A stretch of 64,000 nt of DNA from an uncultured Chlorobiaceae bacterium (GCA_903882665.1 CAIRXW010000024.1:32217-96216); one strand, 5' to 3'; shown: positions 8,272 to 25,623, counted from the first letter of the stretch. Notes: generated by a model from the letters alone, not told the origin. Made by a program: numbers and translations.

Positions 8272-8370
8272 GGCGCTTGAAATGGGATTTATTGCCGATG
8301 ACCGTCTGGCCGGATTTCGCCTGCAACGGCTTGAGATATTCAACTGGGGCACCTTCGACGGGCGGGTCTG
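8185..8370. repeat. Left copy of the 186-bp duplicated jetB-3'/jetC-5' junction (partner at 10470..10655)
   Basis: Hand alignment. The 88-nt jetB-tail part has 19 mismatches. The 98-nt jetC-head part has only 4 mismatches. Confidence 0.85.
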
Positions 8371-8404
8371 CCAGTGTACGTATTTGTGGAAATATCACCA
8401 ATAA
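8264..8404 (+). pseudogene. Orphan 5' stub of jetC (first ~35 codons), truncated at the insertion junction
   Basis: [35 protein letters not shown] then runs into unrelated sequence (CQCTYLWKYHQ*). Compare the intact JetC N-terminus [36 protein letters not shown] at 10549. Confidence 0.85.
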
Positions 8405-8624
8405 AGCGCATTTTTTCTTTATTTAATGCGTAAACTTAAAGCTTATATCGACAATTTGAAGTAAAAGCGTTTTTTCACTGCACGAACATGTCAGGTTTAC
8501 AACTCAAACTCAGTCACGTTTTGTCTAGTGACCGAGAAACGCCTCACTTTTACGAAAGAATTAAATATATAATAAATTAGATTGAAGCTTTACCAAAATT
8601 GTTAGCCGAATAGGAATATTAATT

Positions 8625-9341
8625 ATGCCTTTAATTGCGTGCCCTGAATGCGGTAAAGAAATGTCACAAGTCGCACAGTCATGTCCAAACTGTGGCAAAC
8701 AGAACGCAAATGTTATGCAAAGAAAGCGATATGTAAGATTTTTTTGGCTTGGCACTGGAATTTTTTTATTTCCAATAATATTTTCATGGTTTACTCTACG
8801 TAAAGGTTATTCAATAACAGCAAGGGTTATTTCTATCTCATGGTTAGTACTTTTTTATTTGGTTTTTTTTAACACAAAAAATGTTCACACTCCAAAAGAA
8901 ATGCCAGATAATCAGCACGTTCAATTGGATTCTTCAGGTTACAAATACTTCGTTGAACAACCTAAAGCAACGGAACTTGCTAAAGCTCAGCTTAAAGAGA
9001 GTCCTGCTTACAAAGACTATTCGGCCGATGCAAATACAGCACTTCTGATTGAAGTTAAGGAACGACTGAAAGCTCCAAGTGGTGCTGATTTTCCTTGGGA
9101 TGATTTACCAAAAGAAGTAACAACGAAAGGAGTAAAGCTTTCTGATATGAGCCCTTATTTACATAAAGTCATAAAGGAAGCTCGAAAACTAAAAAAAGAA
9201 GATAATGTTCGAGTGTATCAAAAAAATTCTTATGTAGATGCTGAAAATTCATTTGGTGCTAAAATTCGTCAGCGCTATTTAGGAACTTTTATAATCTACA
9301 CTGAATTTGGATATACAAAATCGTTTATTGAGTTCTATTAG
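8625..9341 (+). CDS. Zinc-ribbon membrane protein, function unknown
   Basis: 238 aa. N-terminal CPECG...CPNCG zinc ribbon, two hydrophobic helices (FFWLGTGIFLFPIIFSWF, VISISWLVLFYLVFF), then a ~150-aa soluble domain. Strongly AT-rich. Confidence 0.6.
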   Translation: MPLIACPECGKEMSQVAQSCPNCGKQNANVMQRKRYVRFFWLGTGIFLFPIIFSWFTLRKGYSITARVISISWLVLFYLVFFNTKNVHTPKEMPDNQHVQLDSSGYKYFVEQPKATELAKAQLKESPAYKDYSADANTALLIEVKERLKAPSGADFPWDDLPKEVTTKGVKLSDMSPYLHKVIKEARKLKKEDNVRVYQKNSYVDAENSFGAKIRQRYLGTFIIYTEFGYTKSFIEFY

Positions 9342-9444
9342 GGACTTAGCAGGGTGACGTAAATAAAAATGCGGATTCTCGGGATTACGTCGCCGGGAAG
9401 CTGGACAAAAGAACTCATTTTGTCTTAAATTTGAATAAAATAAC

Positions 9445-9888
9445 ATGTCCAAAATTATTTTTTTGATTCCTGTACTGCTGATAGTAATAATGATTATACT
9501 ACTATTACCTTTTCATAATTATATTTCACAATTAAAGAATGACGAACTACAACAATGGATTGCATGTATTTATGCTTTTACAGCCATCTTAAGCTTTTGT
9601 TCTTTTATTGGTGTCATCTATACTGTTCACATTCAATTCAATGAACTACAATTATCCAGAAAAACCCAAGAGAAACAGACAGATTATGCTCGGTTGAATG
9701 CTTTAACTATATTAAACGAATATTATCGAACTGAATATAAGCGTCGAGAGATCATAATCGAATCATTACAAGGTATGGAGGGACAAAAAAATGCAATAAA
9801 CAATAACTTAGATACAGAAGATTTATACAAAGAAACTATAACGGAAATTAAAAAGTATCACTCTACACTTTGCAAATCTAAAACATAA
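9445..9888 (+). CDS. Membrane protein with C-terminal charged/coiled region, function unknown
   Basis: 147 aa. Two N-terminal TM helices (IIFLIPVLLIVIMIILLL; IYAFTAILSFCSFIGVIYTV) followed by a K/E/Q-rich tail. Confidence 0.5.
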   Translation: MSKIIFLIPVLLIVIMIILLLPFHNYISQLKNDELQQWIACIYAFTAILSFCSFIGVIYTVHIQFNELQLSRKTQEKQTDYARLNALTILNEYYRTEYKRREIIIESLQGMEGQKNAINNNLDTEDLYKETITEIKKYHSTLCKSKT

Positions 9889-9994
9889 TTTTTTATGTTG
9901 ACTATTATTTGAGGTCGCTTCAGAAAACGGATTTTAATACCTTATAAAATAATTTATGAATTGACATGATCAAATTTCATTAAATTTTTGCAAT

Positions 9995-10159
9995 ATGAGC
10001 TGGAAGAATGGACGATATATATCTGGAACAAGAGGCGTTGTCTTTCGTTTGGAACAGATGAAAAGACAAAAAGGAAAACGTAAAGCGAATGAATCCGCTT
10101 TATTAACTTTAGTAAAGTTAATTTTTTTAGTTTGGCTTCTTATTGTACTTATTTTTTGA
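9995..10159 (+). CDS. Possible 54-aa tail-anchored membrane peptide
   Basis: Found by hand, because it falls below the ORF-track length cutoff. MSWKNGRYISGTRGVVFRLEQMKRQKGKRKANESALLTLVKLIFLVWLLIVLIF*. It is on the same strand as the two preceding ORFs. Confidence 0.3.
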   Translation: MSWKNGRYISGTRGVVFRLEQMKRQKGKRKANESALLTLVKLIFLVWLLIVLIF

Positions 10160-10469
10160 TTGCAATAAGACAAATACTATTGACCTGTTTGTACGAACCA
10201 ATAGTTATTAGTTATCTTTGTGGGTTTACCTGAAGATAGAAAAAATATGAAGTAGGAACTAAAGGATATTGATGAATGAAGATAGGCTAAAACCTAACTT
10301 GATCGATTTACTATAAAAAAGCTTCGGCATTTTCAGTTAAAGCATAATACTTAAATGAGTAATAGGGAATTATCATTTGCAAAGTAACACAAGCCAAAAA
10401 GTATTGACGATCTACGGCAATAGATACAAAAAAGAGCCACAAAAAAGACCATCATATCAGTTCTGTCGG

Positions 10470-10655
10470 GACGCCCAGTGGCTGGCCGATTTTGATAAAC
10501 GACTTGACGAATACCTGCAGCGACCGGTAAAAGGAATGGAGAAAGATGATGAGTGAGTCGCTTGAAATGGGATTTGTTGCCGATGACCGTCTGGCCGGTT
10601 TTCGCCTGCAACGGCTTGAGATATTCAACTGGGGCACCTTCGACGGACGGGTCTG
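10470..10655. repeat. Right copy of the 186-bp jetB-3'/jetC-5' junction. It includes a 28-codon jetB-tail relic (10470..10556).
   Basis: It encodes ...[28 protein letters not shown], versus the resident JetB tail DAQWLSDFDQRMAEYRQQLSQPLEKSDE*. Confidence 0.85.
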
Positions 10656-13600
10656 GACACTCAAACTGGGAGGGAAAAACGGCCTGCTCACTGGAGATAT
10701 CGGTTCCGGAAAATCGACGCTGGTCGATGCTGTGACCACCCTTCTGGTGCCAAGCCAGCGCATTGCCTACAACAAGGCGGCAGGTGCCGACAACCGTGAA
10801 CGCACCTTGCGCTCCTACGTGCTCGGCTACTTCAAGTCGGAGCGGCATGAGAGCCTCGGAGGAGGCGCCAAGCCGGTTGCCCTGCGCGAACTCAATGGCT
10901 ATTCGGTCATTCTCGGCGTCTTTCAAAACGAAGGCTACGACAAGACCGTTACCCTCGCACAGATTTTCTGGATGAAGGATGCCACACAGCCCGCCCGCCT
11001 CTATGCCGCTTATGAGGGTGACTTGTCGATTGCTGTCGATTTTTCAGGCTTTGGTGCCGAAATCGGGGCACTGCGCAAGCGTCTGCGCGGAGCGGGAGTT
11101 GAGCTTTTCGAAACCTTTCCTCCCTACGGTGCCTGGTTCCGGCGGCGCTTCGGCATCGAAAATGAGCAGGCGCTCGACCTCTTTCATCAAACCGTCTCGC
11201 TCAAGTCGGTAGGCAACCTGACCGATTTTGTGCGTCTCCACATGCTTGAACCCTTCACGGTTGAGCCACGCATTGCCGCCCTTATCCAGCATTTCGAAGA
11301 TCTCAACCGGGCGCACGAAGCGGTTCTCAAGGCGAAACGGCAAATCGAGATGCTTGGCCCTCTGGTGGCTGATTGCGACACGCACCACACCTTGGCCGAG
11401 CGAGCCGAAGAGCTTCGCGGCTCCCGCGACACCCTGCGCCCCTGGTTCGCCTCACTCAAACTCGAACTGCTCGACAAACGCCACGCCTCTCTGAGTGAGG
11501 AGCTGAGCCGTTACCAGATCGCCATCGAACGCCTTGAGGCTGGGCGTCGCACCCAGCGGGATCGTGAACGGGAACTACACCGAACCATCGCCGAAAACGG
11601 GGGCGACCGGATTGAGAGTATCGCAGCAGAGATTCGCCAGCAAGAGGAGGAGCTCCAGCGGCGCAACCAGAAATCGGCCCGATATGGAAAACTTGCACGC
11701 CAACTGGGAGAGCATCCTGCCGCGACCGCCGAGGAGTTTCATCTCCAGCGTGCTGGCCACTCAACCATGCACGAAACAACCGCCAACGCTGAAGCGAGGG
11801 TTCAGAACGATCTCAATGAGGCGGGCGTCCTCTTTACCCAGGGGCGTCACGAGCATGAGCAACTGAGCGCCGAGATCAAGAGCCTCAAGGCCCGCATGAG
11901 CAATATCGACGAAAAACAGATTGCCATGCGCCGCTCACTCTGCCATGCGCTCGGTATCGCCGAAACGGAGATGCCCTTTGCCGGTGAACTGCTTCAGGTG
12001 CGTGAAGAGGAAAAAGTGTGGGAGGGAGCCATTGAGCGGGTGCTCCGCAACTTCGGCCTCTCGCTGCTGGTGCCCGACCATCACTACCCCAAGGTGGCCG
12101 AATGGGTGGAGCGCACCAATCTGAAAGGGCGGCTGGTCTATTTCCGTCTGCGCCCGCAAACTCGCAGCGAAGCGTTGCCCGATAACCCCGATTCACTGGC
12201 CCGCAAGCTCGCCATCAAGGCCGACTCCCCCTGTTTTGACTGGCTCGAACGGGAGGTGGCCCATCGTTTTGATCTGGTCTGCTGCAAAAGCCAAGAGGAG
12301 TTCCGGAGAGAGAAAAAAGCGATCACCCAGGCGGGCCAGATCAAGTCACCCGGTGAACGGCACGAAAAGGATGACCGCCACCGCCTTGACGACCGCAGCC
12401 GCTATGTGCTCGGGTGGAGCAATGCCGCCAAAATCGCCGCCCTTGAAAAGAAGGCTAAAGGGCAGCAACAGGAGCTGACCGAACTCGCTGGCCGCATCAG
12501 CTCACTGCAACAGGAGCAAAAATCGCTCAAGGAGCGGCTGACCATCCTCTCCAAGCTTGATGAATATCCTGATTTCCGCGACCTCGACTGGCAGCCGATA
12601 GCCTTTGCCATCGCCCGGCTCGAAACAGAAAAGCGTGACCTTGAAGCTGCCTCGGATCTCCTGAAAACCCTTACCGACCAACTGGCCGCGCTCGAAATCG
12701 AACTGCAGGAGACGGAGCGGCAACTTGACGACAAAAAGGATAAACGCTCAAAAATAGAGCAGAAAATCAGCGTCAACAATGAGCAGCAGCAACAGGCACA
12801 TGCGATACTCAATGAAGCAGTACCCGACGCTGCCAGCCGCTTCCCCACCCTCCAGCTCATGCGTCAGGAGGCTTTCGGCGACCAGTCGCTGACGGTAGAA
12901 TCGTGCGACAACCGCGAACGGGAGATGCGCGACTGGCTTCAGGCAAAAATCGACAGTGAAGACCGGAAGCTCTCCCGATTGGGCGAAAAGATCATCCGGG
13001 CGATGACCGAATACAAGGAGGAGTGGAAACTGGAGACCCGTGAGGTGGATGTCAACATCGCCGCTGGCTACGAGTATCGCTCAATGTTCGCCCAACTCCA
13101 GGCCGACGACCTGCCGCGCTTTGAGGATCGGTTCAAGGAGCTGCTCAACGAAAACACCATCCGGGAGGTGGCCAATTTTCAGTCGCAACTGGCCCGCGAA
13201 CGGGAGAGCATCAGGGAGCGCATTACGAAGCTCAACGAATCGCTCACGCAAATCGACTACAATCCGGGCCGATACATCACCCTTGAAGTACAGATCAGCC
13301 CCGACGCCGACATCCGTGACTTTCAGTCGGAGCTGCGAGCCTGCACCGAGGGAACGCTCACCGGCTCGGATGACGCGCAATACTCCGAAGCCAAATTCCT
13401 CCAGGTGCGCCGCATCATCGACCGCTTCCGTGGCCGTGAAGCATACTCCGACCTCGACCGGCGCTGGACCGCCAAAGTGACCGACGTGCGCAACTGGTTT
13501 GTTTTTGCCGCCAGCGAACGGTGGCGCGAAGACAACAGCGAACACGAACACTACGCCGACTCAGGCGGCAAATCCGGCGGGCAAAAGGAGAAGCTTGCCT

Positions 13601-13913
13601 ACACGGTGCTTGCCGCCAGCCTTGCCTACCAGTTCGGCCTTGAATGGGGGTCGTGCGCTCCCGCTCCTTCCGCTTCGTGGTCATCGACGAAGCCTTCGGA
13701 CGCGGCTCCGATGAATCGGCCCAGTACGGCCTGCAACTCTTTGCCCAGCTCAACCTGCAACTGCTCATCGTCACCCCCTTGCAGAAAATCCACATCATCG
13801 AGCCCTTCGTCTCCAGTGTCGGCTTTGTCCACAACAAGGAGGGACGCTGCTCGGAGCTGCGCAACCTCACCATCGAAGAGTATCGCACCGAAAAAGAGAG
13901 GTCGGTGGAATGA
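10546..13913 (+). pseudogene. jetC: Wadjet JetC (SMC/MksB-like ATPase) interrupted by a 1-nt frameshift in a G5 run (13646-13650)
   Basis: N-terminal [16 protein letters not shown] and Walker [21 protein letters not shown], followed by long coiled coils. After ...[10 protein letters not shown] the frame degenerates into S/P/A-rich nonsense (to 14037). The frame starting at 13644 encodes the expected tail [23 protein letters not shown]...[12 protein letters not shown] (Walker B / D-loop) and ends at 13913 with an ATGA overlap onto jetD. A sixth G would restore a single ~1120-aa ORF. Confidence 0.85.
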
Positions 13914-15085
13914 GCTGGACAACCCCCGCCGAACTCAAGGCCCAGGTGCAGAAGCTCTGGGATCGGGGCCTCATCCTCTCCTCCCTGATTGGCGGCGAAT
14001 CGGTTTTTCCCCGTCGCCTGACTCTGAAAGGGCCTGACTCCCGGCAATTGAGCGACTCTTTTGGGGAAGTGCGTGACTGGATAAAGCGACTCGACGACGC
14101 AGCAAAGCAGTATCGCATTGTGTGGCGCAGTGTCAACCACCGCATTGTGGGGAACAATGAGATTCCGGATGAAATCTGGATTGATTCACTCAACGACGCT
14201 CTCGGGTTGATTGGCAAGCGGCGTGATGCTGAGCGGTTTGCCGCCCTGGTTGCTCTGACCCGCAGCCGTCAGCCTGAACTGCTGCCGTGGCTGGCCAAAC
14301 GCCCCCTGCACGCCCTCGAACTGGCCGAAGAGTGGTCCCGCATCCTCGACATCGTCGCCTGGCTGCAAAACCATCCCCGGCCCGGTATCTACCTGCGCCA
14401 GATTGACCTGCCTGGAGTGCACAGCAAGTTCATAGAAGGGCATCGTGGAGTGCTTGGCGAACTCTTTGATATCGTCCTTCCACCGGAAAAGATTGACGCA
14501 ACGGCGGTTGGCGTTGGAGGATTCTGCCGCCGTTACGGCTTTCAGGACAAACCCCTGCGAGTACGCTTCCGCATCCTTGACCCGACACTGGCGCTGTTCA
14601 TGACGGAGAGTGATCACGATATCACGGTGACGCAGGCAATCTTTGCCCAACTGGAGCTGCCTGTTACCAGAGTCTTCATCACCGAAAACGAAATCAACTT
14701 TCTCGCCTTCCCCGATGTTCCCGAGGCAATGGTGATTTTTGGAGCCGGGTATGGGTTTGAGAATCTGGCGTCAGTCGAGTGGATGCGTAACCGCGTTATT
14801 CATTACTGGGGCGACATCGACACCCACGGCTTCGCCATTCTCAACCAGTTGCGCGGATTCTTTCCCCATGCGGCTTCCCTTTTGATGGATAGTGAGACAC
14901 TGATGGAGCATCAAGCGCTTTGGGGCGTTGAACCATCTCCCGAAACCGGTACACTCACTCGACTGACCGCTGAAGAGAACCCGCTTTACGATCAGTTGCG
15001 CCGGAATGAGCTGGGACATCAGATACGGCTGGAGCAGGAGAAGATCGGGTTTGAGTGGCTGGTTGAGGCGCTGGGGAGAGTTTGA
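13910..15085 (+). CDS. jetD: Wadjet JetD (DUF3322 + DUF2220/Toprim-like nuclease subunit)
   Basis: 391 aa. Motifs: [51 protein letters not shown]. Confidence 0.9.
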
Positions 15086-15189
15086 GCGAGGATTATTGTT
15101 TGCAAAGAACAACTCATACGACAAAAAAATAATACAGTTTTATTCCGCGATTTCTACTTATCATCTAAATGAAGTACCACGCAGTATAA

Positions 15190-15639
15190 TTGTGTTTTTA
15201 TTCCTTAGACATCAAATGTATGACAATGCGTTATTTCAATGTCAACACCAATAGGCGTCACAACCAAAAGGCTCAACAAGAAATGTTGTCCGAGAACAAG
15301 GCCGCCACACATTACCAAAAATTTTTAATGTATAATTTAGAGGAAGATGACGTTGTTTTCTTATACGAATCTAAGGTCGGAATTGTGGCATTAGGTGAAG
15401 TTGGTAAAGGAGAAGTGATGATAAAAAAATGTCGAAACGACGATCAGTATGAGGACGGTAATGAATATTACAGAAACTTGAACAATTTCAAGATATTAAG
15501 CCAGCCGTTGACGTTTGCTAAAATAAAAGAAATCACAAGAAAATATTATGGCTGCGTTCACGCAATGAATTGTGTTTCAGATGATTGTGGTACAGCCATC
15601 AAAAACTTCATTTACGACCCCACAAACAAGCTGTTATAA
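15190..15639 (+). CDS. Hypothetical protein
   Basis: 149-aa ORF with a TTG at 15190; more likely starts are ATG 15220 or 15226 (MTMRYFNVNTN...). AT-rich, convergent with the VRR-NUC gene. I recognise no motif. Confidence 0.45.
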   Translation: MCFYSLDIKCMTMRYFNVNTNRRHNQKAQQEMLSENKAATHYQKFLMYNLEEDDVVFLYESKVGIVALGEVGKGEVMIKKCRNDDQYEDGNEYYRNLNNFKILSQPLTFAKIKEITRKYYGCVHAMNCVSDDCGTAIKNFIYDPTNKLL

Positions 15640-15659
15640 TTGATTATTTCATTAGTTGG

Positions 15660-16355
15660 TTAATGTTTTTGTGGAAGTAGTTGAACTACACAACATACAA
15701 GCCCGAGCGGCTTTGCGATTTCTTTTGCAAATCTCAACTGCGATTCATGAAGACGATCGGTTGTCTTGACTTCAATAAATGACACCCCATTTTTATCTAT
15801 AACGGTTAAATCAGGCCAACCGGATCGATAATCATAGGGATTTGTCATAAATAATGCAGCAATTTTAGCAATCAAATTGGAATCAACTAAATAGGCAAGG
15901 GAGCTTAAAAAATTTTGAAGAATTCCTTGGTGAGAATATTCTTTTTGGTAAAAATATTGAGTTAAGGGATCAGTACAGATCTCAATGATGTGTTCTTGTA
16001 ATTGCTCGGGGCTAATGTTTTGGATACAAGTCAGTATTTCTGGTTGGTAAGCCTTGAGTATCGTACACTGGGCTTCAAAAAAACGACGGATTGCATCTTC
16101 TCTGTCGTTAAAAATATTTCGTTTTGTCAAAACATCCAAAGCCGCTGCCTTCATTAGAATACTTATTCCCATACCCTCACACCAACATGATTCTCTGTTT
16201 TCGGCAGCTAATCGAGTAACAACGACTTGTTCAGGTTTTAGGTCTGAAACCTGCCCTTCCTTCCATTTCCCTGCGCCTATTTTCAATGCATGCATGGTGT
16301 GAAGTGGCCAATTAATTTGCTCGCATTGAGCTTTTAATGTCAGGGTGGTCATCAT
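15660..16355 (-). CDS. FAN1-like VRR-NUC (PD-(D/E)xK) nuclease
   Basis: ORF 15660..16442, with the probable start at MMTTLTL (16355). C-terminal YRSGWPDLTVIDKNGVSFIEVKTTDRLHESQLRFAKEI fits the VRR-NUC pattern GxPDL...xEVK..D.L...Q. The upstream CWCEGMGISILMK resembles the H/W-x-EG helix that precedes VRR-NUC in FAN1. Confidence 0.75.
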   Translation of the reverse strand: MMTTLTLKAQCEQINWPLHTMHALKIGAGKWKEGQVSDLKPEQVVVTRLAAENRESCWCEGMGISILMKAAALDVLTKRNIFNDREDAIRRFFEAQCTILKAYQPEILTCIQNISPEQLQEHIIEICTDPLTQYFYQKEYSHQGILQNFLSSLAYLVDSNLIAKIAALFMTNPYDYRSGWPDLTVIDKNGVSFIEVKTTDRLHESQLRFAKEIAKPLGLVCCVVQLLPQKH

Positions 16356-16623
16356 AATGGAGTTGTGCTTGTAATGCAATAAAAACCGAAACACAAGAAA
16401 TATTGAAAAAGATTCTGGTCCGCTTGAAAAGAGCAAATACATCGAAATATGAACACAAATTACTTCAAATGAAATTAATTCAGAATAATGATCGGTACAT
16501 CATAGATGTTTGTTAAGAACAACAAATCAATACTATGTATTATATCTTGAAGTGAACAAACCAAACCGATTTTTTGCTGCTGATAAACATCGACCCGTGA
16601 TATTCATTCAGATAAATCATCAA

Positions 16624-17634
16624 TTAGTCTTCTGGTATGTCGTAATTATCATGAGGAAAAGAAACCCAGGAGAATTCGATAAAATTATTATCTCCTCTCC
16701 AATAATGCAGGTGATATTCTCCAATGACATCCCTTCTCATACCTATTGCCCCATCAAGTTTTCTCTTTAGGGCCGGGTTTCCTCCGCCAATTCCTGTTCT
16801 AAATCGGTGTTCTGCAGCTTTGTTTAGATTGAGTAACGAGTCAAGCATTGTCATTATTGTCTGTCGCAGAATAGATTGCTGTAATTTGAGTTCTTTGAGC
16901 CTGCTGATGAATTTGCTACCAATCTTATAAAGGGGGATCTCATCAGAAGGAGTCGTGGATTTATTATGAAGATCAAAAACGAATTGGATGGCAATTTTTA
17001 GGGTTTCTTCACTAAGCAAGGAATGAAAGAGTTGTCCGATATCCAGATGTTTGAGGATATCTTGGTAATCCATTGCCAAAAGAAAACGATTGTGAGATAT
17101 CTGAGGATTCAAGTCACGGGAGTTGAGGCTGGCTGTTGTGTCAATTACTGTACTATTGATAATGTGTTGTGCAAGAATAGATTGACGTTCGTTTGGCTGG
17201 TCAGCCTCTAAAATTAAGCACTGCAATGTCTTAATAAAAAGCGACTGTAAATTAGTACCTATGGCGTTTTCTGGGATAGCGGGAGTAACTGAATCTATTT
17301 TGACTTCCTTGTCGGTAATCTGCAAATTCTCATCTTCAAGATAAGAATGGAGGGACGTAAGTTTATAGAAATACGGAATTAGATCGTTGGCGCTATGTTC
17401 ATAAACATTGCATTGTTTAAGTTTTAGTGAAAGTTTTTTTGGATCAAGATATTCGCTGTCTATAAATAGTGCATTCAGGGAACCGCGACTCATTATCAGA
17501 CTCAAAAGGGGCTCTGACCTGAAGAAATCCAATGAAATCAATGCATCTATATATTGTAAAGCCTTTTCTTTCTTGTCCCCGATACTCGAAATAGCCAATA
17601 CACTGGGGTCAAGAATGACGCGTAAAGGGAGCAT
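16624..17634 (-). CDS. Hypothetical protein with a RelE/ParE-like C-terminal segment
   Basis: 336 aa. I see no N-terminal motif. The C-terminal GAIGMRRDVIGEYHLHYWRGDNNFIEFSWVSFPHDNYDI follows the RelE/ParE core pattern (G..W.R.VG.YRl.Y...d..i.i..v..H..Y). It starts 25 nt after the upstream ATPase stop. Confidence 0.6.
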   Translation of the reverse strand: MLPLRVILDPSVLAISSIGDKKEKALQYIDALISLDFFRSEPLLSLIMSRGSLNALFIDSEYLDPKKLSLKLKQCNVYEHSANDLIPYFYKLTSLHSYLEDENLQITDKEVKIDSVTPAIPENAIGTNLQSLFIKTLQCLILEADQPNERQSILAQHIINSTVIDTTASLNSRDLNPQISHNRFLLAMDYQDILKHLDIGQLFHSLLSEETLKIAIQFVFDLHNKSTTPSDEIPLYKIGSKFISRLKELKLQQSILRQTIMTMLDSLLNLNKAAEHRFRTGIGGGNPALKRKLDGAIGMRRDVIGEYHLHYWRGDNNFIEFSWVSFPHDNYDIPED

Positions 17635-17659
17635 AATTCGAAAGATTAGAAAGATTTAA

Positions 17660-19204
17660 TTAATTATTTTTCGGATTGCTTTTCCGCTTCTTGATGGCGG
17701 CTTTAGTGATTTTTTCGACGGCGGATTCATTTTCATCAAAAAAGCCTTCAGGCCAATCCAGAATGCTGCCACATTCGTCAATCTTGATTTCGCGAAATGT
17801 AGAGCTATCATTTTTGTTTTCGACGAAATACACTTTTGCAGCATCATGCCAGGGAGAACCCTCGAAGCCCTCAGCAATCCGAAGACGAATGCGGTTAATA
17901 ATGTGTTCACTATGCGTTTCAACAAGGCACTGCTTGCCGAGCTGCGTCAGAGAAAGGAAAAAGTCAGCCAATCGAGACTGAACTTTCGGATGAAGATGCA
18001 ATTCCGGCTGCTCAAATATCAATGTTGTGTCCGGCTCCGCAAGTAAGCCAGAAACAAGAATAGGTAAAACCTGACTAACACCTACGCCTACTTGAGTTAT
18101 ATCATTAATTTGATTGCCATTACCTATCTTAACCCCAAGTTCAAGGCCGTACTTGCCCTTGTCAGTCACTTCAATTTTTTCAGCTATACCAAGATACCCA
18201 AGCCAGTCATCAATAGCATTTTCGAGTAAACATTCAATAGGCTCTGGAATATTTCCTGATTTATCGAAAGATAAAGAAGGAATGTATCGAATGATTTTGC
18301 GCTTATGCGTTTCAAAAACCTCCGGAGTGTTTTCGCCTTTCAGACCGATAGTGTTTTCATTTAAGTTAGAAAATCGGGCATATAAAGACTTGGAGGAGGC
18401 TCGCAAAGGTCCGAGATAGTGTAATGACTTTGAAAAGTATTCCTTGATATATTGCGTAGCCTCTTTAGCTTGTGGCGGTAGTGACCCCCTCCACATGTTA
18501 AAATAGTTATTTTTGCCCTTATCTGTCCATTCATCACCAATTAACAACTGTGCAGGTAAGAAATTTTGAAATATACAACCGATTGCAGAGCATTTATACT
18601 CTTCCTCAACTGTGTTACAAGGAAGCTTAGAAAAATCGTCTTTGTGAAAAACATGGGATTCACGATCTTCGATATTATAGCTTAAAGCATTACGAATATC
18701 CTTGTCCGAAGTGTTTTGTATCCATTTCTCTTTCCAGCCAATTGTAAGAATGTCAGGGCGCTTTACATTCAAAGAGTATTGGTTCCCCAGACCAAAATGA
18801 GAACGACATAAATCTATGTCACTGTTATCCCCTGTTGGCAAATACAATTCTGAATCACTTGGTGCAACGGCTATCTCGCAATATATTTTCTTCTTTAAAA
18901 TCTCATCGAACGGAAGCAAGGTGTCGCTTAAAGTTAAACACTCCCAGCCGATTACCAAGGTCTTTGATGTACTGTTATCACTTATGTTGTCATTGAAATT
19001 TCCCAGCTTAATGAGATCACCGTTCAATACTAATGGACGAGAAGGATCCTTATGTGAAAGTGTCTGAACAATAAGCAGTATAGACTTTAGAATGGTACTC
19101 TTCCCGCTACTATTTGCTCCTGCGAAAAGAGTCAAAGGGAAAAAATCAAGCTCTGTGTAATCACGTATAGACCTAAAATTAGCTAACTTCCATTTTGTAA
19201 TCAT
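17660..19204 (-). CDS. ABC/OLD-type ATPase (AAA_15/AAA_21-like) with DUF3696-type C-terminus, short paralogue
   Basis: ORF 17660..19246, with the start taken at MITKWKLANF (19204). Walker A GANSSGKST, Walker B-like LIFEQPELHLHP, H-loop ETHSEHIINR, C-terminal DWPEGFFDE. Confidence 0.85.
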   Translation of the reverse strand: MITKWKLANFRSIRDYTELDFFPLTLFAGANSSGKSTILKSILLIVQTLSHKDPSRPLVLNGDLIKLGNFNDNISDNSTSKTLVIGWECLTLSDTLLPFDEILKKKIYCEIAVAPSDSELYLPTGDNSDIDLCRSHFGLGNQYSLNVKRPDILTIGWKEKWIQNTSDKDIRNALSYNIEDRESHVFHKDDFSKLPCNTVEEEYKCSAIGCIFQNFLPAQLLIGDEWTDKGKNNYFNMWRGSLPPQAKEATQYIKEYFSKSLHYLGPLRASSKSLYARFSNLNENTIGLKGENTPEVFETHKRKIIRYIPSLSFDKSGNIPEPIECLLENAIDDWLGYLGIAEKIEVTDKGKYGLELGVKIGNGNQINDITQVGVGVSQVLPILVSGLLAEPDTTLIFEQPELHLHPKVQSRLADFFLSLTQLGKQCLVETHSEHIINRIRLRIAEGFEGSPWHDAAKVYFVENKNDSSTFREIKIDECGSILDWPEGFFDENESAVEKITKAAIKKRKSNPKNN

Positions 19205-19298
19205 ATCTATTCTGGTTTTACAACACCCGAGATGCTGATTGATCAATGAGTAAAGATATCACGTTTGAGAAACGCCGTTACTGTAGCAGCTTACGGTG

Positions 19299-21383
19299 TC
19301 AATTAAATCGCCCCTTAACATGTTGTTTTAGAGCCATCGCCCGTATTCTTTTTTCAGTTTCCAAAAGACCTTCTTCAAAAAATCCCTCAGGCCAATCCGG
19401 AATAGCTCCATATTCATTTATGCTCACTTCCCTGAATGATGAACAACTCTCTTTTTTTTCTACGAAATATACTTTTGTGGCCTCTGGCCAAGGTGAGCTT
19501 TTAGAACCTTCAGCAATTCGAAGACGTATACGATTAATAATGTGCTCACTGTGCGTCTCAATCAGGCACTGCTTGCCGAGCTGCGTCAGAGAAAGGAAAA
19601 AATCAGCCAAACGAGACTGAACTTTTGGATGAAGATGCAATTCCGGTTGCTCAATAATTAACGTTGTATCAGATTTTGCAAGCAAACCAGCCACAATAAT
19701 AGGAAGAACCTGACTGACACCCACACCCACTTGAGTCAGGTCATGATTTTTATTCCTGTTGCTCATGCAAACCTGAAGCTCATGGCCAAACTGAGCAGAA
19801 TCTTTGCTCTCAATATTTTGAGCCACGCCAAGGTAGTTCAACCAGTCAACAACAGCATCCTGGAGTGAACACGTAACCGGAACGGGAATATTTGCCGAGT
19901 TGTTAAACTCAGAGGTCGGTAAATATTGAATGTCATGTATTTTTTGACTTTCAAAAACAGCGGCTGTGTTTTCCCCCTCCAATCCAACATCTTCAAGATA
20001 AGATGTTGAGGAAATCGGATATGACGGTTCAGGATCAATCCTTAATGGACCTATATAGCGAACAGAATTGGTAAAGAAAGACTTAAAGTAGCCTGCATCT
20101 TCGCTGATATGACGTCTCACGAGTTCTCGTTTTACTTCTCCATTCCGTCTTATCTCCTGTATCATCTCATCAAGAAGTGCCTGAAATTTCTGACTTTTAT
20201 TAAGCTTTATCACAACCACATCCCTAAAACAAAATGAGGATGTAAAATCTCCTTCCGTTAAAAAATCAAATAAATCATTAAAGTCCTCACTTTCATCATC
20301 AAGTAATTTCATGAGTTCATCAACAAGATCGTCCAATGAGGCAAGAATTAATGTTTTTCCCTTTTCATCCGAACTTTCACGATCTTTTTTTACAAGTTTT
20401 TCATAAGTATCATAATCATCTTGATCCATATTACTTACAATCTCTTTGATACATAACCTTATCTTTGATTGAAGAAAAATGGGGGCATCAGAAAGGAAAT
20501 CAAAGGGGCATACTCCCTTATATAAACAGAAAACGTTTCTAATTGCTTCAATTTTTTCAACTTCAGTCTCAACTAAAGATGTTATTAAATCGGGCAAAAA
20601 GTGCCAGAAAGAACACCCGATCGTCTTTGATCTATACAACACATCTTTTTCATGTATTTGACCATAAGAGAATTCATAATCATCTCCATGATTCGATTTG
20701 TGATTATAAGAATAATTTGTTATCCAATTGCCGACAAGTTCTGAGCTATATAATGTTTCCCTATCATTTATATTCCCAGAATCACCACTACCCAGATAAC
20801 TAGCCCGTTCAAGTTTCACATCATAATCCAATGTACTCAGAACCGCTTCACTATATGGATTATCTATTACCTTTTGTTTAGAACACTTAGCCTCCTCTGT
20901 TGCTCGAACTGCCACCAACGAACATTCATACGCATTATTATCAGTAATATTTTTTTGCACTGTAAGCGCTATCGAAGATAAAGTTGGGCTTGAAGAAAAA
21001 GTCGATAGATTAGCGCTTGTTTTTGAATCATCCATCCCAAATACTATTTCGCAGGATATTAACGATATCTGCTCAACATCAGCTCGTTCATCAAGTATTT
21101 TTTCTTTTGGTGGTTTCAGCTCCCAACCAATGACGATTTGATCTGAAACACCATCGGTACTTTTTATATCGCTGAATTCACCCAATTGTATAAACTGACC
21201 ATTCAATACGACCTGGCGGGAAGGATCCTTATCGGAAAGAGTCTGTGAAATAAGCAGGATAGACTGCAGAAGCGTACTTTTACCGCTACTGTTTGTACCA
21301 GCAAAAATAGTCAGGGGAGCAAAGTCCAGTGTAGTTTCATCCTTGACAGACTTGAAATTAGCCAATTTCCATTTTGTAATCAT
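19299..21383 (-). CDS. ABC/OLD-type ATPase (AAA_15/AAA_21-like) with DUF3696-type C-terminus, long paralogue
   Basis: 694 aa. MITKWKLANFKSVKD..., Walker A GTNSSGKST, LIIEQPELHLHP, ETHSEHIINR, DWPEGFFEE. The central insertion between the ATPase lobes is about 170 aa longer than in the 17660..19204 paralogue. Confidence 0.85.
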   Translation of the reverse strand: MITKWKLANFKSVKDETTLDFAPLTIFAGTNSSGKSTLLQSILLISQTLSDKDPSRQVVLNGQFIQLGEFSDIKSTDGVSDQIVIGWELKPPKEKILDERADVEQISLISCEIVFGMDDSKTSANLSTFSSSPTLSSIALTVQKNITDNNAYECSLVAVRATEEAKCSKQKVIDNPYSEAVLSTLDYDVKLERASYLGSGDSGNINDRETLYSSELVGNWITNYSYNHKSNHGDDYEFSYGQIHEKDVLYRSKTIGCSFWHFLPDLITSLVETEVEKIEAIRNVFCLYKGVCPFDFLSDAPIFLQSKIRLCIKEIVSNMDQDDYDTYEKLVKKDRESSDEKGKTLILASLDDLVDELMKLLDDESEDFNDLFDFLTEGDFTSSFCFRDVVVIKLNKSQKFQALLDEMIQEIRRNGEVKRELVRRHISEDAGYFKSFFTNSVRYIGPLRIDPEPSYPISSTSYLEDVGLEGENTAAVFESQKIHDIQYLPTSEFNNSANIPVPVTCSLQDAVVDWLNYLGVAQNIESKDSAQFGHELQVCMSNRNKNHDLTQVGVGVSQVLPIIVAGLLAKSDTTLIIEQPELHLHPKVQSRLADFFLSLTQLGKQCLIETHSEHIINRIRLRIAEGSKSSPWPEATKVYFVEKKESCSSFREVSINEYGAIPDWPEGFFEEGLLETEKRIRAMALKQHVKGRFN

Positions 21384-21454
21384 AAGCTATGGTAAATTTA
21401 AAACCGATACATTGTGACTATATGCTATGTTCTCACGAGTCCCACTACTAATGT

Positions 21455-22306
21455 TTACCTGCAAATTCCTAAATGCTCGTGAATGATTTTAATTGAGGGA
21501 ACAACCGTATTTTGCAAATATTCTGTTGGTTCATTTCCACCCCAATTGTAAGGGAAATGAGCACTTGGGTGTGAAAAAGCAGCTATAAATGACTCATGGG
21601 AACCAAGTTTTGCCTTATACACGAAATCTGACACTTGACTTACCGAGTCAAACGATTTTCTGATTGATTTCTTCCAAAAACCTTTTCCCTGAACAATTAT
21701 CACCGACGGTTCAAGAATATTCATAACCTTACGAAAATGCCCACCACAGTTACTCATCATCGTCGGTGTAGCCTTTCCGTTACATGTCCCGTCAGGAACG
21801 GCTGAACAGAGCAAATAGTTGACAAGAGCAAATGCATCGAAAATATGAACGCGCTTGCCTTCAATCGACAGAAATTCAGAATGGTGATCGGTACCGAGTG
21901 GAATGCCGAAAATCAACCGAAGAACGCTTGTTGTGCCTTTCATGTGAGGATTCCGGCCCTTATAACCTTGTCCAGCAGCAAACCGGCAGTCAAGAGCAGA
22001 AAACTTGAACATTTGAGATCGCGCCTGACAATCAACACGGGCTGGAGGATGCCCATATTCTTGCCCAACGACAACGACACGTAATGGCCTCCCATCGAAT
22101 GAAACGCCGTAATATTTCCCTACGTGGTGAAGTTGCCCCTCGTAAAATGTATCAGCGTGCGATGATTTGCACGAATTATAGTGTGAACAGATAAAATCAT
22201 CACCCAAGACATTATCGGTCAAATACTGTTCAACCGCCTGTATTCGGGCCTCAGACTTTTGCTTCTCGTATGTTGCAACAATAGAATCCGCTAACGGAAG
22301 GCTCAT
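21455..22306 (-). CDS. Uracil-DNA-glycosylase-superfamily-like protein (divergent)
   Basis: 283 aa. Three collinear motifs match family-1 UDG: RVVVVGQEYGHP (res. 76-87, cf. GQDPYH), FALVNYLL (res. 159-166, cf. LLLN) and AAFSHPSAHF (res. 242-251, cf. HPSPLS). Assigned by motif reading only. Confidence 0.6.
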   Translation of the reverse strand: MSLPLADSIVATYEKQKSEARIQAVEQYLTDNVLGDDFICSHYNSCKSSHADTFYEGQLHHVGKYYGVSFDGRPLRVVVVGQEYGHPPARVDCQARSQMFKFSALDCRFAAGQGYKGRNPHMKGTTSVLRLIFGIPLGTDHHSEFLSIEGKRVHIFDAFALVNYLLCSAVPDGTCNGKATPTMMSNCGGHFRKVMNILEPSVIIVQGKGFWKKSIRKSFDSVSQVSDFVYKAKLGSHESFIAAFSHPSAHFPYNWGGNEPTEYLQNTVVPSIKIIHEHLGICR

Positions 22307-22726: not shown

Positions 22727-23155
22727 TTATGTTTTGAGGATATAATGCCGTCCTCGCCCTTGACCCTTGGGTACAATCAAGCCATAGACAACAAGCTCCT
22801 TGATATCCCTGGCAGCGGTATCTTTCACAATACCAAGGGTTTTCGTGATCCATCCGGTAGAAACAGCACCATTTTTAACAATTTCGGCAAGTATCACCTT
22901 TTGTCGTTCATTTAACTTTGCAGCAACTGAAGGACTGAGACCAGCAGTAATGTTTTCCGGAAACCGTATTCGATTCATATCTTCCCCCGGGCCTCTCAAT
23001 ACCACCACAACCTCGTTATCGGCTATCGTGATCAGCGGTTCATCAAGTCCGTGGTTCAGCATGGTACCCGCGCATACGCATAATCCCTGTACCGCGTTCC
23101 TCCATGCGACCAAGAAAGACCAAACCCTGAGAGATATTGGGATTCCTGGATCGTG
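22727..23155 (-). pseudogene. C-terminal remnant of an ATP-dependent DNA-binding regulator (AlbA_2/HATPase_c_4-type), copy 1, internally frameshifted
   Basis: One frame reads SRSRNPNISQGLVFLGRMEERGTGIMRMRG. The next frame continues MLNHGLDEPLITIADNEVVVVL...LNERQKVILAEIVKNGAVSTGWITKTLGIVKDTAARDIKELV...GRGRHYILK. This is the typical RNP..E..GTGI..M...GL.eP.f plus wHTH tail. No N-terminal part is present. Confidence 0.6.
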
Positions 23156-23197: not shown

Positions 23198-23605
23198 TCA
23201 GATCGGCATGATTTCTTTCTCAAATTGACTGGCCGAAATGATTCTGGTCGTAACCAACGATTGCGCTTCAGAAAAATCACTGTCGCCAGTGATAAAGTAA
23301 TCAGCGCCGACTGACTCAGCACATTCGAGAAATGGAGCATCCTTCCTGTCACGAGGAAACTCAATATGAATATCAGTGTGGACCATTTGTGTGTCTGCTA
23401 TAAGAAGCTCTGTCCAGCATGTAATTGTTGCAGCGGATAACGCAAATTTTGGACGACGGATAACTTCAAGATATTCATCAAGTACAGACCGGGTAACATA
23501 CCAATCTACATCCACCGCCCCTATACACCACAGCAATACACGCTCGGGTAACCGATCACGGATAACAGCAGACACAACAATATTGGTATCAATAACCACC
23601 TTCAT
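23198..23605 (-). CDS. vapC: PIN-domain toxin (VapC-like)
   Basis: 135 aa. MKVVIDTNIVVSA..., ...DRKDAPFLECA..., YFITGDSDF. There is a 4-nt overlap with the upstream antitoxin ORF. Confidence 0.85.
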   Translation of the reverse strand: MKVVIDTNIVVSAVIRDRLPERVLLWCIGAVDVDWYVTRSVLDEYLEVIRRPKFALSAATITCWTELLIADTQMVHTDIHIEFPRDRKDAPFLECAESVGADYFITGDSDFSEAQSLVTTRIISASQFEKEIMPI

Positions 23606-23841
23606 CGGGTATTCCTGACATCATTAATTTCAGCAGCAATATCTTCGTCAGTAATAGTCGCTGATTGAGGCAAGTTTTGAACATGACGCATGAGTGCCTG
23701 CCAGGATGATACTTTCTCATCACTCAGCATGCTTTGATCAACAATCAAAACTTCAAGGAGTACACCTTTCTGAAAAGGTAACCGGTCAAGCACCAATCGG
23801 CCTGACGAATCAACTTCAGCGTATGTCTTGTAAGCTTTCAT
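23602..23841 (-). CDS. Putative antitoxin of the PIN toxin
   Basis: ORF 23602..23895, with the likely start at MKAYKTYAEVDSSGRLVLDRLPF (23841). It is small and acidic at the C-terminus, and translationally coupled to vapC. Confidence 0.6.
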   Translation of the reverse strand: MKAYKTYAEVDSSGRLVLDRLPFQKGVLLEVLIVDQSMLSDEKVSSWQALMRHVQNLPQSATITDEDIAAEINDVRNTR

Positions 23842-23980
23842 AGCACAGCACCTCCTGTAACGTAAAATTCGGCCAATATAGTAAGGCAAGAACATCGCGT
23901 CTACTATCCAAAACCTTTATCAAGTTAACATATCCCACAAAACAAAGCGAGGTTTTATTCCCGGAGATCATGAGTGAATG

Positions 23981-24193
23981 TCAAGCGGATTTCGCCAACT
24001 TTTCAGCCCTCTGATCCAGAGTGAACAAGACTTCTTGAATGGCTTCAACTTCGGGTTCATCAAAATAGACTTCGCCACACTGGGCGCATACCCAGGCAGG
24101 AATTCTGTCTAACGTAATGTGATAGCCTTTCCTGTCGGTATGAAAAGGCGCAATCCCCCGTTCCATATTCCCGCTACAATACATGCAGTTCAT
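23981..24193 (-). CDS. YgiT-type zinc-finger antitoxin-like protein
   Basis: MNCMYCSGNMERG...IPAWVCAQCGEVYFD, a double CxxC that fits the YgiT/MqsA N-terminal zinc-finger pattern. Confidence 0.75.
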   Translation of the reverse strand: MNCMYCSGNMERGIAPFHTDRKGYHITLDRIPAWVCAQCGEVYFDEPEVEAIQEVLFTLDQRAEKLAKSA

Positions 24194-24324
24194 CGTCTCC
24201 TCCTTCGTTTGTAATCGTACTCCCACTCGTCAAGGTTAGGAATATACGCAGTGATGACTGCCTGATAATCCCCCTTCGGTGAGCAAACTACATGAATTGG
24301 TGTATCATCAAGCCCTGCAACTTC
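24190..24324 (-). pseudogene. Truncated DUF4258-like toxin (C-terminal 44 codons only)
   Basis: *EVAGLDDTPIHVVCSPKGDYQAVITAYIPNLDEWEYDYKRRRRR* with an ATGA overlap onto the YgiT gene. An in-frame TAG sits directly upstream, and no N-terminal half is found in any frame. Confidence 0.5.
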
Positions 24325-24583
24325 CTATCGTAGAACCGAGGTGGAAATCTGATACGGACATTATCCGGCCATATTCCTGCGCCGATTAATTGCTGGGTAC
24401 AACTTGCATAAATACAGCTAATAGTATGCAAATATGATAGTTACAAAGCAGCAAGAATACTATGGGTGGTTGCGGAATTTACCTATCCGGACATTATCCG
24501 GACATAAATCAAGAGCGAATTCTTCCCACGAGCGCGAAGAGAGCATAACTTAAATTTCACCAAATTCACACCATCAACTTTTA

Positions 24584-24859
24584 CTATCGGTACACATCCT
24601 TCCGGTGAGCGATACGAACCACAAGAACGGAAACCTTCTCATCGTACAGTTCACAAATCACGCGGTAATCTCCGACCCGGTACCTCCAGAGTCCGGAGAG
24701 TTCTCCACGCAACGACTTACCCGAACTGCGAGGATCAACGGAGACTCGTTCCCACAAATACCTGATAATCCTCTTTGCGGCAGGCTTGTCGATCCGGGCC
24801 AACTCTTTTTCAGCCTCACCCGTTATTTCAATTTTCCAGACCAAGGCGCTGCTCCACAT
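24584..24859 (-). CDS. relE: RelE/ParE-family toxin
   Basis: 91 aa. ...[13 protein letters not shown]..., [37 protein letters not shown]. Confidence 0.85.
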
Positions 24860-25079
24860 CTTCTAAACTGGAAACAGACTCCTCGCCTCGTCTTACGCGT
24901 TCCAACACCTGCTCAGCCAGATAAACATCTTCAAGATCATCAAGATGCTCAACTATGGCTTCGCGAATATAATACGTCTTGCTGCGTCCGGTTCTAAAAG
25001 CAAGGCTTTCAAGCCGTTGCCCAATGCTCCTCGGAATACGGATACCGATCATCTGATCTGCTTTCTCTTTTTCCATCAT
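24828..25079 (-). CDS. Ribbon-helix-helix antitoxin (RelB/CopG-like)
   Basis: 83 aa. [36 protein letters not shown] (RHH). It overlaps the relE start. Confidence 0.75.
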
Positions 25080-25287: not shown

Positions 25288-25623
25288 TCAATTTATGCAG
25301 ATCCATAGCACAAGCTCCTTGATATCCCTAGCAGCGGTATCTTTCACAATACCAAGGGTTTTCGTGATCCATCCGGTGGAAACAGTGCCGTTTTTAACAA
25401 TTTCGGCAAGTACCGCCTTTTGTCGTTCATTCAACTTTGCAGCAACCGAAAGACTGAGACCAGCAGTTATGTTTTCCGGAATCCTTATTCGATTCATATC
25501 TTCCCCCGGACCTCTCAATACCACCACAACCTCGTTATCGGCTATCGTGATCAGCGGTTCATCAAGTCCGTGGTTCAGCATGGCACCCGCGCATACGCAT
25601 AATCCCTGTACCGCGTTCCTCCA
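25288..25623 (-). pseudogene. Copy 2 of the regulator C-terminal remnant (see 22727..23155), further deleted at its 3' end
   Basis: Near-identical nucleotides to 22800..23110. It carries the same internal frameshift and lacks ~140 bp that are present in copy 1 (about 22660-22800). Confidence 0.6.

Follow-up and report, generated by a model that had tools for sequence, protein, structure and literature searches.

A three-gene ATPase-effector cassette beside Wadjet in an uncultured Chlorobiaceae bacterium as a candidate NsnA-less relative of Menshen and HEC-03

The closest described systems and the ATPase pair

Menshen (NsnA-NsnB-NsnC) was reportedly described by Millman et al. 2022. Its first gene is polymorphic in sensor domains, its NsnC protein consists of an inactive PIN-like N-domain and a C-terminal nuclease (mostly BECR), and its NsnB ATPase carries variant motifs (Walker B D-E to E-N, Q-loop Gln to Arg and SGG to GxG) (PMC12065111). 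AlphaFold 3 (AF3) models place the DUF3696 tails of NsnB asymmetrically around the NsnC N-domain, and in PARIS/Septu/Gabija-like systems an ATPase dimer binds one effector asymmetrically (PMC12065111). HEC-03 consists of an ABC ATPase and a PIN-domain protein and resides within Hma systems; it protects E. coli, and both genes are required (bioRxiv 10.1101/2024.01.29.577857). Here we analyzed a stretch of 64,000 nucleotides (nt) from an uncultured Chlorobiaceae bacterium (GCA_903882665.1 CAIRXW010000024.1:32217-96216), the whole of which is referred to as the window. It carries a minus-strand cassette of three genes (16624-21383) encoding a long ABC ATPase, a short paralogous ABC ATPase and a 336-amino-acid (aa) protein, here called the effector. 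The cassette is flanked by a gene for a protein resembling uracil-DNA glycosylases (UDG) on one side and by genes for a probable VRR-NUC nuclease and an EVE-like protein on the other, beside a Wadjet system. The ATPase-effector logic is that of Menshen and HEC-03, while the absence of NsnA, the duplicated ATPase and an effector family outside the PADLOC 2.0.0 models are new.

Both ATPases exceed the Pfam thresholds for AAA_15, AAA_21 and DUF3696 (AAA_15 E-value: 1e-26 and DUF3696 E-value: 1e-7 for the long protein; 1e-30 and 2e-10 for the short protein), in agreement with the DUF3696 assignment of an earlier reading of this DNA from its letters alone (the sequence-only reading). That reading had held that the region matches no named system. 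This is not the case for the ATPases: NsnB of Menshen was the best of more than 110 PADLOC models for both (E-value: 9e-80 long, 5e-74 short), followed by the HEC-03 ATPase model PDLC04148 (E-value: 5e-56 and 3e-50) and then by PDC-M55. PDLC04148 is named HEC-03B in PADLOC-DB, and the ATPase is called HEC-03A in the preprint. The models for ATPase subfamilies of the PARIS, Septu and Gabija type gave E-values of 1e-11 to 1e-34, compared to 1e-74 to 1e-80 for NsnB. The window proteins share the general logic of those systems, in which an ATPase oligomer restrains or activates a nuclease-type effector, but the latter use other ATPase subfamilies, other effectors (Toprim, HNH) and homo-oligomeric ATPases.

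The Walker A motifs of the pair read GTNSSGKST and GANSSGKST, further motifs read from the translations are LIIEQPELHLHP and LIFEQPELHLHP, and ETHSEH and DWPEGFF are common to both proteins. When placed by eye, the Walker B motif is LI(I/F)EQ (E-Q, not E-N), VGVGVSQ fits the GxG signature and (I/L)GPLR could be an Arg-type Q-loop. These non-canonical motifs (Walker B Glu-x and GxG) appear to be of the same kind as those of NsnB. Identity between the two proteins is 58% in the C-terminal 267 aa and 35% in the N-terminal part, which bears out the earlier call that they are paralogues, and the long ATPase has an additional insert of ~180 aa relative to the short one. Over its full length, the long ATPase is 37-41% identical to DUF3696 ATPases of ~630 aa from many phyla. 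Among seven Chlorobiaceae-type orthologues, the nucleotide-binding ends of both ATPases are highly conserved (mean pairwise identity of 0.85-0.97) and the middle of the long ATPase (residues ~91-443) is the least conserved part (0.27-0.65). The middle insert is variable in both ATPases, and this variability is greatest in the long one, where identity drops to 0.27-0.31.

The effector and the exchanged three-gene unit

The 336-aa effector has no match in Pfam, NCBIfam, PADLOC or PHROGs. Following an exhaustive HMMER search of representatives, its family was found to comprise 253 clusters at 50% identity, with proteins of 330-365 aa; a word-indexed protein search yields only six close homologues. 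A profile built from 47 members returned noise only against PDB sequences. The family has a C-terminal signature (H-x-LR ... R ... AWRRDID ... HLHYW ... E ... H) in which H276, R279, R291, R300, H308, H310, W312, E320 and H328 are invariant or nearly so. An AlphaFold 2 (AF2) model based on 60 family members had a predicted local distance difference test (pLDDT) score of 93.5. Its C-domain is a helix-helix-four-strand unit that Foldseek matched to YoeB (7v6w_F, probability 0.96, TMt 0.62) and also to HigB2 and ParE2; in a full-length Foldseek search nothing fell below an E-value of 0.01, and the small C-domain matches are the informative ones. The model thus supports a YoeB/RelE-like (BECR) RNase fold for the C-domain, consistent with the RelE/ParE-like C-terminus noted previously. 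The N-terminal ~230 residues alternate between strand and helix in a Rossmann-like manner, with a first strand that ends in Asp. As modelled, the effector has an NsnC-like architecture, with a predicted Rossmann/PIN-like N-domain and a predicted BECR C-domain. The earlier statement that the region follows the logic of an ABC-type ATPase paired with an effector is borne out in this form, as NsnB/HEC-03-type ATPases with a predicted toxin-type RNase partner.

The effector motif was used to fetch 80 metagenome loci, with a subset of 28 sequences used for alignment. A DUF3696 ATPase of ~630 aa lies immediately upstream of the effector in 76 of these loci, and the remaining four are contigs of 1.1-1.5 kb with too little upstream DNA. 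None of the 80 loci carries a UDG-like, VRR-NUC or EVE-like homologue, and no DUF262 protein was found in the effector-family loci or in the window. Among loci of at least 9 kb, 32 of 39 have the arrangement BrxF-BrxC-PglXI-[ATPase-effector]-SNF2 helicase-PglZ-BrxA, which is type 3 BREX (L071-L075, L081-L157). These BREX-embedded relatives consist of two genes, a single ATPase and the effector. The form with two ATPases is found in Chlorobiaceae-type contigs and in one distant lineage, L076/L077, which encodes ATPases of 629 and 496 aa, an effector with 36% identity and an upstream TPR protein, and neither a UDG-like nor a VRR-NUC protein.

The boundaries of the cassette are sharp. In L160, homology to the window extends from 10 nt before the ATG of the long ATPase to just past the effector stop codon. 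Between L165 and L166, identity is only 84% in the UDG-like gene but 99.9% beginning at the first base of the long-ATPase ATG. Because these boundaries are sharp and the flanks are swapped, the exchanged unit consists of the long ATPase, the short ATPase and the effector. A further home of this three-gene cassette is found in L159 (273-4347) and L160 (143-988). The genes upstream there encode an SNF2 helicase of 1060 aa that includes an Mrr_cat domain, followed by a 281-aa endonuclease-like protein, which ends 15 nt before the long ATPase and matches only PHROG 1111 'endonuclease' (E-value: 3e-14); in L160, an N6/N4 methyltransferase is encoded downstream of the cassette. The 281-aa protein of L159 was considered as a GIY-YIG enzyme and rejected following a search that gave no Pfam match.

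We considered a single ancient duplication as the origin of the ATPase pair and rejected it on similarity scores. The window paralogues are no closer to one another (442 bits) than either is to the single BREX-embedded ATPase (445-460 bits), and both are more distant from the L076 paralogues (313-332 bits). These values point to independent duplications or to gene conversion, and imply that the pair may have arisen more than once or may have been homogenized.

The effector is itself exchanged between close relatives. In L001 and L003, it is a variant that is only 21-29% identical, with DNA on either side that is 84-90% identical, and the swapped segment begins within the short ATPase gene, at its 3' end (window ~17731). 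The short ATPase ends in one of two types of ~24-residue tail, A (…EKITKAAIKKRKSNPKNN) and B (…ERILRAASQKDVKNWKDN), and the tail type matches the effector type in 9/9 loci. The core of the short ATPase is 74-86% identical within Chlorobiaceae-type loci and 47% identical in the distant L076, which also pairs a type A tail with a type A effector. The tail of the long ATPase is unchanged whichever effector type is present. This co-variation of tail and effector fits the published AF3 placement of the DUF3696 tails around the NsnC N-domain.

With respect to Menshen, the window is similar in its NsnB-type ATPases (AAA_15 with a DUF3696 tail), in an effector that lies directly downstream (25-nt gap) and has a predicted BECR C-domain, with an N-domain lacking a confident PIN match, and in the swapping of the effector gene between close relatives, which parallels the polymorphism of NsnC (PMC12065111). 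It differs in having two paralogous ATPases instead of one, an effector outside the PADLOC NsnC model and a UDG-fold gene upstream in place of NsnA (ParB-DUF262 plus ParBDB). No NsnA or DUF262 match was found in the six window proteins using Pfam and PADLOC, and a six-frame scan of the window for DGxQR gave one chance match in a 150-aa open reading frame (ORF). Without the defining NsnA, the locus is not a member of Menshen. With respect to HEC-03, the window shares a sensor-less ABC ATPase of the same family with an adjacent, putatively PIN-like effector, and its relatives, like HEC-03 itself, reside within a modification-based system, in their case type 3 BREX. Unlike HEC-03, the window locus has three genes, two of them for ATPases, and is not embedded but lies beside Wadjet; its effector falls outside the HEC-03 partner model and has a predicted BECR RNase domain in addition. 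The published Menshen survey was seeded on DUF262 (PMC12065111), so loci lacking NsnA would have been undetectable in that census. Because the effector family matches none of the models searched, such loci would be only half-recognized by PADLOC 2.0.0. An ATPase-effector core resembling that of Menshen and HEC-03 is widespread without NsnA.

Starting from the domain identities, the strict linkage, the cassette boundaries and the tail-effector co-variation, we propose that the two paralogous ATPases would assemble as a hetero-oligomer. The C-terminal tail of the short ATPase would dock onto the Rossmann/PIN-like N-domain of the effector and keep the YoeB/RelE-like RNase domain inactive. The variable inserts of the ATPases, mainly that of the long one, might read an infection cue, with coupling to ATP binding or hydrolysis; the RNase would then be released or activated, leading to RNA cleavage, growth arrest of the infected cell and so presumably an abortive outcome. 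In this division of labour the short ATPase would be responsible for effector docking, and the long ATPase, which has the larger variable insert, would be the more likely sensor. We assign a probability of about 0.72 to the functional unit being this three-gene cassette, an NsnA-less relative of Menshen and HEC-03, with the mechanism as proposed. If so, the tail as a docking element and a duplication that splits sensing from docking would provide a testable handle on how a toxin is restrained.

Several points weigh against this interpretation. The variant with two ATPases is known from only two lineages. The effector had no match to any PADLOC model at E ≤ 0.1, including NsnC and the HEC-03 partner, and the PIN-like nature of its N-domain is a matter of topology only, the best PIN-like Foldseek match having a probability of 0.07. 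Lacking NsnA, the cassette has no recognized sensor, and we infer complex formation, RNase activity and a role in defence. Finally, the gene upstream of the cassette is co-directional and close in three different contexts, at 71 nt (the UDG-like gene), 15 nt (L159/L160) and 90 nt (the TPR gene of L076). Because homology begins only 0-10 nt before the ATG of the long ATPase, the cassette does not carry a private promoter, and it may be co-transcribed with the upstream gene and perhaps even cooperate with it.

The flanking genes and alternative readings

The motifs GQEYGH, LVNYLL and HPSAH, which had been taken as evidence for a family 1 UDG, are present in the translation of the 283-aa protein, as are all other motifs quoted in the sequence-only reading. 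An AF2 model of this protein (pLDDT 89.7) was matched by Foldseek to the family 4 UDG 4zby, UdgX, MUG, SMUG1 and TDG with probabilities of ~1.0 (TM 0.4-0.59, with 0.4-0.56 for family 4 and UdgX; 11-17% identity). TIGR00758 was matched over residues 176-250 (E-value: 2e-4), and no Pfam UDG match was found at E ≤ 0.1. The protein has 368 homologues, and C40, C46, C167, C187, G81, Y84 and G85 (of GQEYG) and H246-P247-S248 are invariant across 22 of them. The layout of the four Cys presumably recalls that of Fe-S UDG families. The superfamily assignment therefore stands and the family 1 assignment does not, as the nearest structures are those of family 4 and UdgX, four Cys are invariant and Pfam UDG is not matched. 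The model places the protein in a divergent four-Cys clade of the UDG superfamily, nearest to family 4 and UdgX.

A neighbourhood survey covered 70 genome loci that encode a homologue of this protein. ATPase and effector homologues are adjacent in only four of the 70, all of which are contigs of Chlorobiaceae metagenome-assembled genomes (MAGs) that are syntenic with the window, including Wadjet. The other 66 have no ATPase or effector neighbour, and neighbour clustering showed no conserved partner. The neighbours sampled were mostly housekeeping genes (mfd, malate synthase, Ham1-like, adenine deaminase and carboxypeptidase), along with one TIR protein. The UDG-like gene of L002 is interrupted by an in-frame stop codon and has a change from HPS to HPA, so that the invariant Ser is lost, and the ATPases and effector are intact. 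In L001, the UDG-like gene and the ATPases are separated by an unassigned 281-aa ORF and by genes for an ISL3 transposase and for the reverse transcriptase of a group II intron, and L165 has an additional 362-aa gene in this position. These intervening genes (L001 5428-6273 and L165 506-1594) encode products that are 94% identical over 270 residues and do not occur in the window. The Ignavibacteriaceae MAG locus L032 (9944-13267) offers a second, independent case of a UDG-like gene next to an ABC ATPase gene, probably by coincidence. There the homologue overlaps the terminal part of mfd and faces, in convergent orientation, genes for a 293-aa protein and for an AAA_15 ATPase of another kind (518 aa, without DUF3696).

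UDG-fold defence enzymes encoded in A/T-rich islands have been documented as Brig1 and Brig2 (PMC11078745; bioRxiv 10.1101/2025.10.29.685425). By their description, these single-gene UDG-fold proteins of A/T-rich, defence-rich regions are a precedent for solitary action against modified phage DNA, as could apply to the 283-aa gene and to a second UDG-like gene in L003. The family of the 283-aa protein differs from them in its four invariant Cys, its proximity to family 4 and UdgX, and the location of its homologues elsewhere, mostly among housekeeping genes. The UDG-like gene probably has a single-gene function, either as a repair enzyme or as a stand-alone defence glycosylase of the Brig type.

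On the other side of the cassette, the 231-aa protein matches Pfam VRR_NUC with an E-value of 1.7e-4 (22.1 bits, just under the cut-off of 23.8) and the PHROGs for endonuclease (E-value: 3e-6) and Holliday junction resolvase (E-value: 5e-5), and its sequence reads GWPDL...FIEVK...Q. Full-length plasmid homologues (34-38% identity) are named VRR-NUC in RefSeq and have no ATPase neighbours. Sequence comparison with PDB returned noise only (IRE1, E-value: 0.24; the VRR-NUC entry 4qbn, E-value: 1.1). The protein had been described as a FAN1-like VRR-NUC nuclease: the VRR-NUC part of this description is probably correct, but FAN1-like is not supported beyond the nuclease core. FAN1-like nucleases are large, with SAP/TPR modules ahead of the VRR-NUC domain, and this protein is only 231 aa in length, its N-terminal 150 residues have no domain match in Pfam or PHROGs, and its homologues are stand-alone proteins of ~210-226 aa. 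Mobilizable 3.7-kb E. coli plasmids (L162-L164) carry such homologues as their main cargo. The 149-aa EVE-like ORF, which was overlooked previously, matches Pfam EVE under the cut-off (E-value: 8.6e-4) and is 98% identical in L002; its homologues are cargo of 2.9-kb enterobacterial plasmids. Neither the 3.7-kb nor the 2.9-kb plasmids carry anything resembling the ATPases. The EVE-like ORF was also compared with the DUF6530 neighbour of the plasmid VRR-NUC gene, and the two are not related. In L003, from a related Chlorobiaceae MAG, the segment corresponding to window 15080-16410 (the EVE-like and VRR-NUC genes) is exchanged for two other genes (7404-8900), which encode an unrelated second UDG-superfamily protein (283 aa, PF03167 E-value: 1e-5) and an 8xMP octameric membrane protein (PF24838 E-value: 6e-23), such that UDG-fold genes stand on both sides of the ATPase cassette in that locus. 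The VRR-NUC and EVE-like genes thus form a swappable segment, probably of nucleases or readers that are cargo of mobile elements.

The explanation originally offered for this region was a single integrated system of five genes, in which a glycosylase-like sensor of lesions or modifications signals through a heteromeric ATPase pair to a RelE-like toxin and the VRR-NUC nuclease. The five genes are co-directional and share a low G+C content, and the full set occurs again in L002 and in one ENA contig. These recurrences, however, are the same syntenic Chlorobiaceae region (L002 is 88.6% identical to the window at the nucleotide level over 10.9 kb, including Wadjet) and therefore represent a single evolutionary event. 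Co-occurrence of the five genes outside this genome, which the sequence-only reading had set in advance as its test, was not observed beyond this syntenic region: apart from the syntenic loci, the surveys seeded on the UDG-like protein and on the effector each failed to recover the other, and the VRR-NUC and EVE-like genes are swapped out in L003. Both of these genes are also missing from L160, L165 and L076, the VRR-NUC family is solo plasmid cargo, and the VRR-NUC gene is preceded by a gap of 268 nt. We consider a five-gene system very improbable. A module for DNA repair, composed of RecF/SMC/SbcC-related ATPases, a glycosylase and a nuclease and having no part in defence, is extremely improbable. 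Profile searches gave weak RecF/SMC matches at the N-termini of the ATPases, and the UDG-like family is found with mfd, Ham1-like and adenine deaminase genes as described above, but the ATPase-effector pair lies within BREX at most loci, the partner of the ATPase has a predicted toxin-type RNase fold, cassette and effector are swapped at sharp junctions in the manner usual for defence genes, and all of the nearest profiles are those of defence ATPases.

A system of four genes with a swappable first gene is unlikely. Here, the upstream gene (UDG-like in the window, endonuclease-like in L159/L160 and TPR in L076) would replace NsnA as a DNA-facing sensor or accessory enzyme, and would relay to the ATPase pair that it has acted on phage DNA or bound it. 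The short gaps on a common strand and the absence of a private promoter described above are in its favour, as are the facts that two of the three upstream genes encode DNA-acting enzymes and that the first gene of Menshen is likewise polymorphic in sensor domains (PMC12065111). The BREX-embedded relatives, on the other hand, lack such a gene and have PglXI directly upstream; the UDG-like gene is a pseudogene beside an intact cassette in L002; mobile elements or an extra gene intervene in L001 and L165; in other phyla, the genes next to members of the UDG-like family are unrelated ones, mostly of housekeeping type; and there are just three contexts, all of them gene-dense islands. Given that the upstream gene is co-directional and near in every case and that there is no room for a promoter in the cassette, one could go further and speculate that this slot is an exchangeable sensor or accessory position that couples NsnB-NsnC cores to different DNA-acting enzymes, with the duplication having resolved an asymmetric ATPase dimer into sensing and docking subunits. 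We regard this as quite unlikely; if true, abortive infection would be triggered in a new way, by a glycosylase signalling modified or damaged phage DNA to an RNase under ATPase control. The three-gene cassette remains our preferred reading, under which the UDG-like, VRR-NUC and EVE-like genes adjoin it independently in a Chlorobiaceae defence hotspot beside Wadjet, probably with single-gene functions. The supposed novelty of five genes is thereby reduced to a defined unit of three, and tight co-directional spacing inside a defence island is no evidence for a single system.

Layout of the region and its surroundings

The features of the region are listed in Table 1. The lengths of the five minus-strand genes agree with those given previously, and the intergenic gaps from the UDG-like gene through the VRR-NUC gene were measured as 71, 94, 25 and 268 nt (the last of which had been estimated as ~270 nt). 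In the mechanical ORF listing, the short ATPase ORF reaches a TTG at 19246. The VRR-NUC gene has an alternative ATG at 16442 that would give a 260-aa product, but the 231-aa form is favoured because the plasmid homologues align from residues 5-7 of that form. The EVE-like ORF is convergent with the VRR-NUC gene and lies 20 nt from its stop codon.

Table 1. Positions of the cassette genes and their neighbours in the window
Feature	Coordinates	Strand	Product
UDG-superfamily glycosylase-like gene, four invariant Cys	21455-22306	-	283 aa
Long NsnB-type ABC ATPase with C-terminal DUF3696 tail, first cassette gene	19299-21383	-	694 aa
Short NsnB-type ABC ATPase with DUF3696 tail	17660-19204	-	514 aa, start ATG (MITKWKL)
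NsnC-like effector (predicted)	16624-17634	-	336 aa
Probable stand-alone VRR-NUC (PD-(D/E)xK) nuclease, in variable segment	15660-16355	-	231 aa
EVE/PUA-like ORF, in same variable segment as VRR-NUC	15190-15639	+	149 aa, weak match

The G+C contents counted by hand in the sequence-only reading (37% and 68%) were reproduced by computation, with 36.7% at 20281-20340 and 68.3% at 6241-6300. The block from 15086 to 22306 has a G+C content of 38.7%, compared to 58% in jetA-B and jetC-D. Wadjet had been placed next to this AT-rich block, and PADLOC identified JetABCD of type I Wadjet at 6191-15085, directly upstream of it. A scan of 15.0-22.8 kb for promoters and terminators gave counts no higher than expected from shuffled sequence and provided no operon boundaries; two of the predicted terminators, located within the ATPase genes, are one and the same paralogous sequence.

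Within Wadjet, jetC is broken by a frameshift near 13.63 kb (window 10546-14037 and 13644-13913). The long jetC ORF covers positions 4-1031 of the JetC profile, and an 89-aa ORF in another frame covers positions 1036-1120, including the Walker B region (FVVIDEAF). The split gene is either a pseudogene or the result of an assembly error. Between jetB and jetC is a 2.3-kb AT-rich stretch (8272-10545, 33.9% G+C) with a 238-aa ORF (8625-9341) that has no PADLOC match, and it appears that something has been inserted into the Wadjet operon at this position. On the other side of the UDG-like gene, two near-identical small ORFs (MLNHGLDEPLITIADNEVVVVLRGPGEDMNRIR...) at 22727-23113 and 25288-25581 mark a duplicated segment. 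One of the two has a weak Csa3-like match (E-value: 2e-6), and together they bracket several genes of toxin-antitoxin size (23198-25079).

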